A DNA stretch of 64,000 nucleotides from the NCBI GenBank assembly GCA_963704305.1, contig OY969888.1:3875010-3939009 (forward strand), written 5' to 3'. Shown here in pieces: positions 26,536 to 29,001 of the stretch; the first letter of the stretch is position 1, and each line of letters starts with the position of its first letter. The notes below the pieces were generated by a model that did not search any database, was not told where the DNA came from, and saw only the letters and a list, made by a program, of their open reading frames with translations. The DNA comes from an uncultured Bacteroidota bacterium (lineage in GTDB: Bacteria; Bacteroidota; Ignavibacteria; Kryptoniales; JAKASW01). Made by a program: the position numbers and the translations under genes.

Positions 26536-26556
26536 TATTCCTCCAAATTGGGTTAT

Positions 26557-26585
26557 AATTTAATGCAGTGGCTGCTAAACTTCAA
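26557..26585 (-). promoter_or_regulatory. candidate sigma70-type promoter for rplU-rpmA
   Basis: Minus strand reads TTGAAG, 17-nt spacer, TAAATT. A GGAGG Shine-Dalgarno and the ATG follow within about 20 nt. Confidence 0.3.
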
Positions 26586-26609
26586 TTACGAAATTGAATT
26601 TGCTAGAAT
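26581..26609 (+). promoter_or_regulatory. candidate sigma70-type promoter for tRNA-Ser
   Basis: Plus strand reads TTCAAT, 17-nt spacer, TAGAAT, about 74 nt upstream of the tRNA 5' end. Its -35 overlaps the divergent rplU -35. Confidence 0.25.
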
Positions 26610-26682
26610 GGAACTTCAGAGAGAACGGTTTTGGAAATGAAAGAAACAATCAATTATATTTCCAACGAGTTACTGACGATTT

Positions 26683-26775
26683 GGAGAGGTGGCCGAGTGG
26701 CTGAAGGCAACGGTTTGCTAAACCGTCATACTCTGTAAAGGGGTATCGAGGGTTCGAATCCCTCCCTCTCCGCCA
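26683..26775 (+). tRNA. tRNA-Ser (anticodon GCU), class II with long variable arm, CCA encoded
   Basis: Acceptor GGAGAGG/CCTCTCC. Anticodon stem ACGGT/ACCGT with loop TTGCTAA. Long variable arm, T-arm GAGGG-TTCGAAT-CCCTC, discriminator G, then CCA. Confidence 0.95.
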
Positions 26776-26813
26776 GACTGCGCATCGCGGACGATGCTTC
26801 GTCTGGCAGGCCA
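26761..26813 (+). repeat. direct repeat copy 1: tRNA-Ser 3' end plus downstream hairpin
   Basis: CCTCCCTCTCCGCCAGAC, 22 nt, GTCTGGCAGGCCA. GCCAGAC/GTCTGGC form a stem enclosing an inner GCATCG/CGATGC stem. Confidence 0.85.
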
Positions 26814-26831
26814 TCAGAGAAAGGGGCGGGC

Positions 26832-27083
26832 ATGGGATTTTGGTATGTATATTTCCTGAAAAGCGTTCACAGAGAATTTCTCTATGTCGGGTCAACGAAT
26901 GACATTGAGAGGAGAATCTCTGAACACATCAACGGGTTGGTTCAGTCTACAAAGGCATACAGACCACTTGAGTTAGTTGCCTACTTGGCGGTGAAGAATG
27001 AAAGGAAAGCGAGAGAACTGGAAAGATACTTCAAGGCAGGTTCTGGCAAAGCAATTCTAAGGAAACGAATTTTGGATGATTGA
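26832..27083 (+). CDS. small GIY-YIG nuclease-superfamily protein
   Basis: 83 aa: FWYVYFLKS...LYVGSTNDIERRISEH...ELERYFK, matching the GIY, YIG, Arg and Glu positions of the GIY-YIG fold. Confidence 0.85.
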   Translation: MGFWYVYFLKSVHREFLYVGSTNDIERRISEHINGLVQSTKAYRPLELVAYLAVKNERKARELERYFKAGSGKAILRKRILDD

Positions 27084-27133
27084 ATGAGCAAACGAATCCC
27101 CTGGCAGACAAAGCTTCGAAGAAGCGTAGTCTG

Positions 27134-27186
27134 CCTCCCTCTCCGCCAGACCACTTGTCGAGGGCGATACCCCGTCTGGCAGGCCA
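27134..27186 (+). repeat. direct repeat copy 2 (same 53-nt architecture as 26761-26813)
   Basis: CCTCCCTCTCCGCCAGAC, 22 nt, GTCTGGCAGGCCA. The 18-nt left arm and 13-nt right arm are identical to copy 1 and the central 22 nt differ. No tRNA body lies upstream of it. Confidence 0.85.
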
Positions 27187-27262
27187 ACGCAAAATGGGGG
27201 AAGGCTTCAAGACCAGAGAACATGCTTACGTTGGGGTGCATTGATCGAAAGGAGGCATCCAA

Positions 27263-27721
27263 TTGTTCTCAGACGAAGACATACGCTTGAGAATTGAAGA
27301 AGACTGGGTTAAGCGCAACCACAACGTAAGTTCAATTCAAACAATCGGCAATTCAAGAAAATTCGCGCAAGGTAACGGACAACTTTTCCTTATTATCGTG
27401 GCCAAGGAGGACTGGCAGGCATTCGATGAGAGCGTCTTTCACAAAGTGGAGTCCCATGACGGGAAGGCTTGGTTGGTCATCGGTAGGCTACAGAAGGGAA
27501 CAGGAAAAGTCGACGTTTATGAAGGAGATCTCCGCAAGTTGCTTGCTAAAAGATCGATCTTAGAATACTCCAAGAAAAAGGGACAATATACCTTGCATTT
27601 CCATAAACTGGGTAGCGACCGAAATAGAATAAAAATTAAGCGCGTTAACATAATTATTCCCAGAGCGGGCCAAATTGAAATCGTGACTCCCGGAAATCTC
27701 TTCGGCATATTGCCACCATAG
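27263..27721 (+). CDS. hypothetical protein, no family recognised
   Basis: 152-aa ORF with a TTG start 7 nt after an AAGGAGG Shine-Dalgarno. No motif I can assign. Confidence 0.5.
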   Translation: MFSDEDIRLRIEEDWVKRNHNVSSIQTIGNSRKFAQGNGQLFLIIVAKEDWQAFDESVFHKVESHDGKAWLVIGRLQKGTGKVDVYEGDLRKLLAKRSILEYSKKKGQYTLHFHKLGSDRNRIKIKRVNIIIPRAGQIEIVTPGNLFGILPP

Positions 27722-28504: not shown

Positions 28505-28702
28505 TCATAGAGACTGGATAATTTCCTTGCTGCTTCGCAAAAGTTTGTTCACCACCGTTTGCGGATTTGCCTTTTTGCGCCTGGCGAGGTCTTGAATGAA
28601 CTGGAGAACATCGTCATCAAGGTAAACTGGAAATCTTAAACGAAGATCTGGCTGATAAAACTTTCCTCGCGTACCTTTAGAAAAATCATATTCGCGTTTC
28701 AT
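28505..28702 (-). CDS. putative antitoxin (BrnA-like) of the BrnT toxin
   Basis: 65 aa starting MKREYDFSKGTRGKFY, a motif common in small antitoxins. Its start overlaps the toxin stop, in the toxin-first order typical of brnT-brnA. Confidence 0.65.
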   Translation of the reverse strand: MKREYDFSKGTRGKFYQPDLRLRFPVYLDDDVLQFIQDLARRKKANPQTVVNKLLRSSKEIIQSL

Positions 28703-29001
28703 TATTTTTGCCTTCTAGAATATTGTTTGACCTCATTCTTAGTCGCTCTGCGTGCAGAGATGATTCGGATACTTGAACTCTCACTGTCAATCTCGCGGAA
28801 CGTGTGAATCACGACCAATGGAACTCCGTTTCGATCCTTCCCAATAGTAACCCATCGCTCTTCCTTTGAACTATGTTTGCCGTCATAGATAGATAACATA
28901 AATGGATCAAGAAAAATCTCAGCCGATCGCTCAAAAGAGACTCTGTGCTTCCTAAGGTTGTCCTCCGCCTTCCGCGGATCCCACTCAAAACAATATTCCA
29001 T
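28702..29001 (-). CDS. brnT: BrnT-family (DUF497) ribonuclease toxin
   Basis: FEWDPRKAEDNLRKHRVSFERSAEIFLDP...ERWVTIG...IRIISARRATKNEVKQY matches the BrnT/DUF497 pattern. Confidence 0.85.
   Translation of the reverse strand: MEYCFEWDPRKAEDNLRKHRVSFERSAEIFLDPFMLSIYDGKHSSKEERWVTIGKDRNGVPLVVIHTFREIDSESSSIRIISARRATKNEVKQYSRRQK

Follow-up and report, generated by a model that had tools for sequence, protein, structure and literature searches.

The 64-kb window analyzed here (64,000 nucleotides of contig OY969888.1, from an uncultured Bacteroidota bacterium) carries, directly downstream of a tRNA-Ser(GCU) gene, an open reading frame (ORF) for an 83-residue GIY-YIG protein that is enclosed by hairpins and by a duplicate of the tRNA 3′ end. 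This arrangement is the local instance of a family-wide pattern. Cassettes of the same construction form a widespread family at the 3′ ends of tRNA-Ser and transfer-messenger RNA (tmRNA) genes in many bacterial phyla, and both of the hairpins that flank the gene covary. The window cassette, a single unit of ∼373 bp, is best explained as a selfish, homing-like element that depends on recombination and has no recombinase of its own, a reading to which a probability of roughly 0.6 is given. A full-text literature search, with subscription-only papers outside its reach, returned no published description of a tRNA-linked GIY-YIG cassette, and the family is apparently undescribed so far.

The features of the window locus are collected in Table 1. 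The 18-mer CCTCCCTCTCCGCCAGAC, which comprises the end of the T stem, the acceptor 3′ strand, GCCA and 3 further nt, occurs exactly twice in 64 kb (0.05 occurrences expected), confirming the duplication of the tRNA end around a GIY-YIG ORF that was proposed in an initial annotation of this DNA. The pattern GCCAGAC-N22-GTCTGGC also has two matches, at 26772-26807 and 27145-27180, where none is expected, and the trailing segment GTCTGGCAGGCCA is found exactly at 26801 and 27174. A repeat search of the window extended the duplication from the 53 nt first described to a direct repeat of 66 nt (26761-26826 and 27134-27199; 77% identity, 373-bp spacing), which runs 13 nt past AGGCCA and nearly to the start of the ORF.

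Table 1. Features of the cassette locus, numbered from the first nucleotide of the window
Feature	Positions	Strand	Basis
Promoter-like site TTGGAA-18-TATATT	26631..26660	+	Consensus match only; counts no higher than shuffles
tRNA-Ser(GCU) gene with encoded CCA, intact target gene	26683..26775	+	ARAGORN; Rfam RF00005, 61 bits
Core copy 1, last 15 nt of the tRNA plus 3 nt	26761..26778	+	Exact 18-mer CCTCCCTCTCCGCCAGAC
Hairpin A, GCCAGAC-TGCG...CTTC-GTCTGGC, with trailing AGGCCA	26772..26813	+	DNA fold −13.6 kcal/mol, z = −4.3
GIY-YIG nuclease ORF (predicted), 83 residues	26832..27083	+	PF01541, E = 9.7e-16
Hairpin B, GGCAGAC-AAAG...CGTA-GTCTGCC, GGCAGACAAAGCTTC-GAA-GAAGCGTAGTCTGCC	27103..27135	+	DNA fold −11.4 kcal/mol, z = −5.3
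Core copy 2, exact duplicate of the tRNA 3′ end	27134..27151	+	Exact 18-mer match
Hairpin A′ with AGGCCA and 13 further repeat nt	27145..27199	+	DNA fold −7.6 kcal/mol, z = −2.1

The 5′ arm of hairpin A begins at the discriminator/CCA of the tRNA. The outer stem of hairpin A′ is identical to that of hairpin A, as had been noted, and its inner part has diverged, with loss of the TRCG/CTTCG core and a weaker fold. The two 22-nt loops, initially taken to be unrelated, are of equal length and identical at 12 of 22 positions, i.e. the second is a diverged copy of the first. Nor is the ORF the sole content between the two copies, as had been thought: a third, inverted hairpin (hairpin B) lies between the ORF and core copy 2 and abuts the latter, its core ACAAAG...CGTAGT being the reverse-complement form of the hairpin A core ACTGCG...CTTCGT. 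The window cassette is of the type that has a second hairpin A, with the right-hand copy older and diverged. Both matches to the hairpin motif in the 64-kb window lie at the cassette. No second GIY-YIG ORF is present in the window, and no significant similarity indicative of a second-ORF remnant was found past the 66-nt repeat, where the alignment score is ∼2 standard deviations above that of shuffles. In agreement with the initial annotation, no integrase or transposase domain was found within ∼7 kb on either side.

The distribution of related cassettes was established in a survey of one genome per GTDB species, which gave 220 confirmed stretches (269 pattern matches) among 185,579 species; the best 80 of the 220 were kept (loci designated by L numbers). 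The tRNA context, assigned with ARAGORN, was informative for 72 of these 80. At the other eight the contig ends within 330 nt upstream of the homolog, several inside the hairpin or the tRNA end, and many contigs break at the tRNA. The homolog lies directly 3′ of a tRNA-Ser gene, on the same strand, at 59 of the 72 informative loci (24 GCU, 17 GGA, 11 CGA and 7 UGA), and directly 3′ of a tmRNA (ssrA) gene at six, all from a Chitinophagales/Sphingobacteriales clade (L053, L054, L060, L061, L064 and L073) that has the A and B hairpins of the rest of the family. Single homologs follow tRNA-Val, tRNA-Glu and tRNA-Pro (three loci, in bins labeled Peribacteria, Saccharibacteria and Rickettsiales), and four are either in tandem or nested downstream of a further GIY-YIG gene whose own position is after a tRNA-Ser. 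Between tRNA end and ORF start the median distance is 94 nt. Where genes were listed for related loci, none of those called beside the cassette was integrase-like. Given that the tRNA-Ser isoacceptors share their acceptor 3′ strand (CCCTCTCCGC in L005 and L022, CTCTCCGC in L034), they would present a small multi-copy target within each genome.

The order of parts common to these loci is tRNA end, hairpin A, ORF, hairpin B and an exact copy of the 3′ end of the upstream tRNA. Across the family, hairpin A takes the form G-C-xxx-(A/C)C-TRCG-[variable inner stem-loop]-CTTCG-(T/G)xxx-GC-AGGC, with the 5′ arm starting from the discriminator/CCA positions, and the motif begins at the tRNA end in 57 of 63 tRNA-anchored loci. 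Hairpin B, written xx(G/A)ACGAAG-[...]-CG(T/C)AGTCxx, commonly extends into the final codons of the ORF, frequently with the stop codon TAG inside CGTAGTC, and B-type hairpins end 1-30 nt past the stop codon. The density of the hairpin motif is 2.15 per kb within 350 nt of the ORFs, as compared with 0.03 per kb elsewhere in 340 kb of flanking sequence, and shuffled sequence gave 2 hits. Dispersal resembling that of repetitive extragenic palindromes (REPs) or miniature inverted-repeat transposable elements was not seen in the window or the locus flanks, the sequences scanned.

Pairing in the outer stem of hairpin A reaches 97.6%, and double-change cells number 73 (16.3 in shuffles); controls in which the pairing was slid were 21-43% paired. 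For the outer stem of hairpin B the corresponding values are 92.7% and 65 (16.1 in shuffles). These figures are to be read with the selection of 3′ partners at a complementarity of at least 5/6, a filter passed by 57 of the 63 tRNA-anchored loci, which inflates the percentage paired and, to some extent, the counts. The earlier suggestion that structure rather than sequence is maintained therefore holds for the structure, the outer stems of which covary, and fails for the sequence, because the core is conserved as well and is exactly what hairpin A′ of the window has lost. Pairing of B and A as one long stem was considered as a general rule and rejected, given that the inner parts are non-complementary in most loci.

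A copy of the tRNA or tmRNA 3′ end of at least 10 nt, starting directly after the B arm, was observed at 41 of 67 loci. The copied end follows the local tRNA even where this is tRNA-Pro (L071, 43 nt), and the tmRNA-end copy is shorter (8 nt in L053). Approximately half of the copy-bearing loci have unrelated DNA after the copy; the others have a second hairpin A, with exact repeats of 30-169 nt. Paralogs beside tRNA genes with matching flanking duplications, for which a search had been recommended, were thus found.

The ORF product matches PF01541 with 58.3 bits (cut-off 22.6), so that its assignment to the GIY-YIG superfamily stands, and no other Pfam domain was detected in the 83 residues, which consist of the nuclease domain and a C-terminal helix pair only. 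More than 100 relatives at 57-77% identity were found, mostly in Bacteroidota, Ignavibacteria and Kryptonia metagenome bins, and a profile search of 1.84 billion cluster representatives gave 2,149 clusters (50% identity) at E ≤ 1e-10, all of small proteins. The GIY-YIG catalytic residues are invariant in the family alignment; in an alignment of 30 sequences the invariant positions were Y7, Y18, G20, R28, H32, E64 and a C-terminal K-x-GSGKA motif. Profile matches in the PDB were to the UPF0213 protein BH0048 (1zg2; E = 5e-7) and to Slx1 (E = 2.6e-4), and in NCBIfam, PHROGs and PADLOC the matches were no more than weak, generic ones to GIY-YIG or homing-endonuclease entries.

An AlphaFold2 model (predicted local distance difference test score of 94.4) has the order of strands and helices expected for the α/β GIY-YIG fold. 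In Foldseek comparisons the best superpositions were on Slx1 (template modeling score 0.67-0.74, root mean square deviation 1.4-2.9 Å) and UPF0213, with I-TevI and UvrC giving poorer ones. By the criteria of PMC1564403 the protein falls in the Slx1/UPF0213 branch: the C-terminal Asn of the UvrC lineage is absent, as in Slx1 and UPF0213, and the domain is standalone. Model and sequence together point to a minimal Slx1/YhbQ-like GIY-YIG domain that is a predicted nuclease; the cleavage activity and its substrate are putative, as read from the sequence.

Presence/absence polymorphism at a defined site was found twice. The cleaner case concerns a Bacteroidota clade with the conserved order TonB receptor, PorV, NHL protein, tRNA-Ser(GCU) and Poly_export, in which L093 is occupied. 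In L101-L103 (NHL protein 78% identical, from three samples) the tRNA is followed by unrelated DNA and the site is empty. L109 (69% identical) has no ORF, with two to three pseudo-tRNA-Ser copies that carry hairpins in their loops. The second case pairs the window with L086, a relative that shares the rplU-rpmA-mdh-HATPase neighborhood. Here, a near-identical tRNA-Ser(GCU), with a recognizable homologous upstream region, is followed by unrelated sequence and then by rplU, with neither hairpin nor ORF; the comparison is not strictly positional, as the tRNA is inverted relative to rplU in L086. Two metagenome contigs with a stretch of 58 nt identical to the window tRNA (L082 and L083) are also empty. 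A relative of the window genome at species level was not found (the nearest L21, the rplU product, is 82% identical), and hence there is no strictly orthologous empty site for the window itself and L086 is the nearest available. Taken with the tRNA-linked paralogs, these empty sites, which the initial annotation had named as the comparison to make, support its proposal of insertion with target duplication.

Two structural details were observed at these sites. The tRNA-Ser(GCU) gene and its upstream region are divergent from rplU in the window and in L087 and co-directional with it in L086 (window 26536-26682 versus L086 2680-3000), an inversion that represents a local rearrangement at the tRNA locus. 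In L109 (3354-3960) the ORF-less pseudo-tRNA-Ser copies have a hairpin in each of their D, anticodon and T loops, the D-loop insert being A-type, and in L093 (2239-2290) a 17-nt tRNA 5′ fragment followed by an A-type hairpin lies upstream of the intact tRNA. These structures may reflect either autonomous insertion of the hairpins or scarring from breaks that were repaired repeatedly.

Signs of turnover are frequent. Tandem full units at 97.6-100% nucleotide identity are present at five independent loci (L019, L033, L044, L050 and L055), and older tandem units, at 79-83% identity, at two. Five ORFs are interrupted or truncated (L020, L049, L063, L065 and L075). Solo A hairpins follow ORF-less tRNA-Ser genes in L023, L034, L051 and L071, and other ORF-less tRNA-Ser genes are without them. 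L054 contains four tandem, ORF-less 62-nt modules of the form [B - tmRNA-end-like core - A], of which there are none in its close relative L061.

Another Slx1-like GIY-YIG subfamily, more remote in sequence (35-53 bits against the profile of the window-ORF family), was also seen to be tied to tRNA-Ser, at other junctions (L004 ∼2400-2924, L027 1540-1984, L045 1-561, L007 1393-2200, L021 2176-2860 and L023 411-900). The ORFs of L004, L027 and L045 immediately precede an intact tRNA-Ser and come after one to three copies of the first 17-29 nt of the tRNA, and these 5′ copies carry GC-rich hairpins of another type (TCAGCCGGAGGCTGA, TCCGCC..GGCGGA). The ORFs of L007, L021 and L023 are located immediately past the tRNA, ahead of a copy of the region from the T arm to the 3′ end, the T loop of which is split by such GC-rich hairpins. 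The closest homolog of the window cassette (75% amino acid identity) is found in L081 (2336-4000), from a Candidatus Kryptonia bin. There, tRNA-Ser(GCU) is separated from the GIY-YIG gene by ∼1.5 kb of partial tRNA-Ser copies arrayed with a period of ∼240 nt; TCCGCC...GGCGGA hairpins take the place of the anticodon and T arms in these copies, and hairpins of the B type are scattered among them. Given that the sugar-catabolism genes downstream in L081 resemble those of the window, the two cassettes may be orthologous.

From the preceding data we infer the following route of insertion and recombination. The structure-specific nuclease would break DNA at or near hairpins or cruciforms formed by A and B, or at the end of the tRNA gene. 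Host recombination or repair would then exploit the tRNA-end homology that flanks the cassette on either side (10-19 nt, longer where a hairpin A is included), and the cassette would be copied or integrated into another, unoccupied tRNA-Ser gene. The same process could expand or collapse tandem units, and excision would leave a solo hairpin A. The target tRNA would remain intact because its 3′ end sits on the tRNA-proximal side of the cassette. A Campbell-type event, or one of the synthesis-dependent strand-annealing type, via a fragment that includes the gene end would always leave one intact tRNA, and one is kept at every locus seen, consistent with such events. A bolder formulation, put forward only tentatively, is that the cassettes may constitute a new class of minimal mobile element, in which an Slx1-like GIY-YIG nuclease of ∼80 residues, the only protein, acts on hairpin ends, a GIY-YIG counterpart of IS200/IS605 elements and REPtrons. 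Such an element would invade tRNA-Ser and tmRNA genes, at the 3′ end and, in the sister subfamily, at the 5′ end and in the loops, and partial target duplication would preserve an intact copy.

Several observations weigh against a selfish, recombination-dependent element. The protein has no separate DNA-binding domain that could account for the choice of target. The length of the duplication is anywhere between 8 and 169 nt, ∼40% of the 67 loci lack an exact copy of 10 nt or more, and the complementarity filter tempers the covariation. Nowhere did two different loci yield a near-identical pair of cassettes, so that there is no sign of recent transposition; it was also sought by way of one exact protein (P0028), all 25 contigs of which, from many samples, proved to carry the same locus. 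In a neighbor-joining tree, Cytophagales clades track anticodon and synteny (tRNA-Ser(GCU)-ORF-tRNA-Arg-tRNA-Pro), which indicates long vertical residence, and some lineages have kept the cassette stably; Ignavibacteria and other Bacteroidota clades mix anticodons. No relatives were found among IMG/VR viral contigs or PLSDB plasmids, so that no vector is evident. Finally, the family protein is under strong purifying selection, with ratios of nonsynonymous to synonymous substitution rates of 0.04-0.21 (the synonymous rate being often saturated), which a host function would fit too.

Those last points (purifying selection, the syntenic anticodon-specific Cytophagales clades, the fixed locus of P0028 and the absence from viral contigs and plasmids) are also the case for a domesticated host gene, in which an Slx1-like nuclease would be resident at tRNA-Ser and tmRNA loci, and the prokaryotic Slx1-like family is generally viewed as one of vertically inherited repair proteins (PMC1564403). 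Its role might lie, for example, in replication-transcription conflicts, in branched DNA at highly transcribed tRNA genes or in precursor-RNA processing; the hairpins would then act as signals for processing or termination, and unequal crossing-over would have produced the duplications as by-products. This explanation is considered rather unlikely. It is at odds with the empty orthologous sites in relatives, with the variety of targets (four tRNA-Ser isoacceptors, tmRNA, tRNA-Pro, tRNA-Val and tRNA-Glu), with the existence of pseudogenes, solo hairpins and ORF-less arrays and with the sparse distribution of the family over the species surveyed. Nor would a processing role lead one to expect that the copied tRNA end starts, without exception, at the B hairpin.

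A true DNA transposon would also be in keeping with the hairpins on either side of the gene, which are inverted, covary and share a conserved mismatch core. A and B would be the ends of the element, and the GIY-YIG protein would serve as a transposase-like nuclease specific to hairpins, by analogy with IS200/IS605 elements or REPtrons. The ORF-less modules amplified in L054, the hairpins inside pseudo-copy tRNA loops in L093 and L109 and the constant position of insertion at the 3′ end of a tRNA-like gene point the same way, and the tRNA-end duplication would be a target-site duplication generated by staggered cuts. However, the duplications are not of fixed length, the hairpins are not dispersed in the flanks and no identical copies were found at different sites. 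GIY-YIG enzymes hydrolyze DNA and, to our knowledge, are not known for strand transfer or joining. A transposon is accordingly rated as less likely still than a resident host gene.

A decayed second tRNA-Ser gene as the source of the second repeat, which had been named as the alternative that would refute the insertion, is very improbable, and so is a chance tandem duplication unrelated to the ORF: partial tRNA-Ser pseudo-copies do occur at L021, L081 and L109, but only the last 10-19 nt of a tRNA are copied (15 in the window), the copy starts right after the inverted hairpin B with no tRNA upstream of it, and the same junction recurs at the 41 independent loci, each matching its own tRNA. Elements that integrate into tRNA genes are classically recognized by direct repeats of the tRNA 3′ end, but repeats only 373 bp apart, with no integrase within ∼7 kb nor called beside the related cassettes for which genes were listed, make the attL and attR sites of an integrase-driven island or prophage remnant the least credible origin of all.

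Expression of the ORF was considered at three loci. In the window, an AAAGGGG sequence resembling a Shine-Dalgarno site lies 8 nt upstream of the ORF. The promoter-like site of Table 1, in a region that can be aligned by eye with the tRNA upstream region in L086, is the sole such site ahead of the tRNA-plus-ORF unit, and none lies within the 56 nt that separate the tRNA from the ORF; this suggests that the window ORF is probably expressed by read-through from the tRNA promoter. In two Ignavibacteria loci, L010 (2832-2900 and 3305-3380) and L039 (2854-2930 and 3347-3420), an intrinsic terminator (stem plus T-run) was noted after hairpin A. This terminator lies within the direct repeat (77 nt exact in L039), and an AT-rich stretch of ∼100 nt precedes the ORF, which at these loci probably has its own promoter in place of tRNA read-through. 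The mode of expression would therefore differ between loci.

A scan of the window region and 11 related loci with Rfam 15 models returned only tRNA, tmRNA and sub-threshold, chance-level matches, and the hairpins are covered by no known RNA family. The model for the proteobacterial small RNA sX4 (RF02223) aligned at full length across tRNA-Ser and the downstream hairpin with 30-32 bits, below its gathering score of 70, and a plastid 3′ untranslated region model (RF04351) matched the antisense strand of the tRNA (match regions of the two models: window 26672-26829, L071 2297-2439 and L066 2831-2986). Both are probably model artifacts that arise from the tRNA-Ser content.

Around the window cassette lie mdh, rpmA, rplU, an unassigned 152-residue ORF, a BrnT-family toxin ORF, a gene for a β-lactamase-family protein and rhamnose genes. 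The 152-residue ORF (27263-27721, plus strand), which immediately follows the cassette, gave no match in Pfam, NCBIfam, PHROGs or PADLOC, and no counterpart was noticed beside the cassette in other loci. At 28505-29001 on the minus strand, a 99-residue ORF matches PF04365 (BrnT_toxin, E = 1e-26) and adjoins a 65-residue ORF that has no Pfam match; by sequence the pair looks like a toxin-antitoxin system of the BrnT/BrnA type.

If the favored reading of the cassette as a selfish, homing-like element is correct, part of the standalone Slx1/YhbQ-like GIY-YIG family, with its 2,149 clusters, would acquire a concrete genomic role, and selfish behavior would be found in a GIY-YIG branch thought to consist purely of vertically inherited repair enzymes. 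The cassettes would be among the smallest self-contained units that target tRNA genes without a recombinase. The covarying hairpins and short tRNA-end repeats provide a clear, testable set of substrates for biochemistry, and a cassette system of this kind could explain the assembly breaks and pseudo-tRNA arrays at tRNA-Ser loci of Bacteroidota, Ignavibacteria and Kryptoniota.

Among known systems, the cassettes share with tyrosine-integrase islands and prophages the tRNA or tmRNA 3′ end as target, the intact gene and a direct repeat of the 3′ end on the far side; unlike these, the cassette has no integrase, its insert is only ∼0.37 kb and its repeat starts after the T loop and is of variable length. 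IS200/IS605 elements and REPtrons (RAYT genes with inverted REP hairpins) resemble it in having a single small nuclease gene, inverted imperfect flanking hairpins, a conserved mismatch motif and covarying stems. However, their catalysis is of the HUH/Y1 type (TnpA or RAYT), whereas the only ORF of the cassette is GIY-YIG; REP hairpins are dispersed genome-wide, whereas those of the cassette are local; and the cassette, by contrast with both, has a target duplication.

The best sequence and fold matches of the protein are Slx1 and UPF0213/YhbQ (COG2827), although Slx1 has a RING domain and the partner Slx4, both of which the cassette protein lacks. Slx1 is a structure-specific nuclease that acts on branched and stem-loop DNA and maintains the copy number of ribosomal DNA repeats (PMC1564403). 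A phylogenomic survey of 2006 treated the prokaryotic Slx1-like proteins as vertically inherited repair enzymes, reported no tRNA linkage and derived selfish GIY-YIG genes from the other (UvrC+) lineage (PMC1564403). Homing endonuclease genes join the nuclease to a DNA-binding domain that reads sequence, whereas the cassette protein has no such domain.

The closest analogue of the proposed behavior of the cassette is SegB of phages T4 and T6, a free-standing GIY-YIG homing endonuclease encoded within a tRNA gene cluster (PMC13096335; in part, PMC2330249). Homologs of SegB frequently lie within 1 kb of tRNAs, and tandem tRNA-Tyr plus segB units of 718 bp arise by nuclease-initiated recombination via microhomology between the tRNA end and the gene end (PMC13096335). 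In both systems, then, a GIY-YIG nuclease gene sits among or beside tRNA genes. SegB is phage-borne and belongs to the I-TevI/UvrC-type lineage, with a DNA-binding part, whereas the cassettes reside on bacterial chromosomes, were not found in IMG/VR or plasmids and encode an 83-residue minimal domain of the Slx1/YhbQ-like type. In contrast to SegB, the cassettes are specific to the 3′ end of tRNA-Ser and tmRNA genes, where they combine inverted, covarying hairpins with a duplicated tRNA end.

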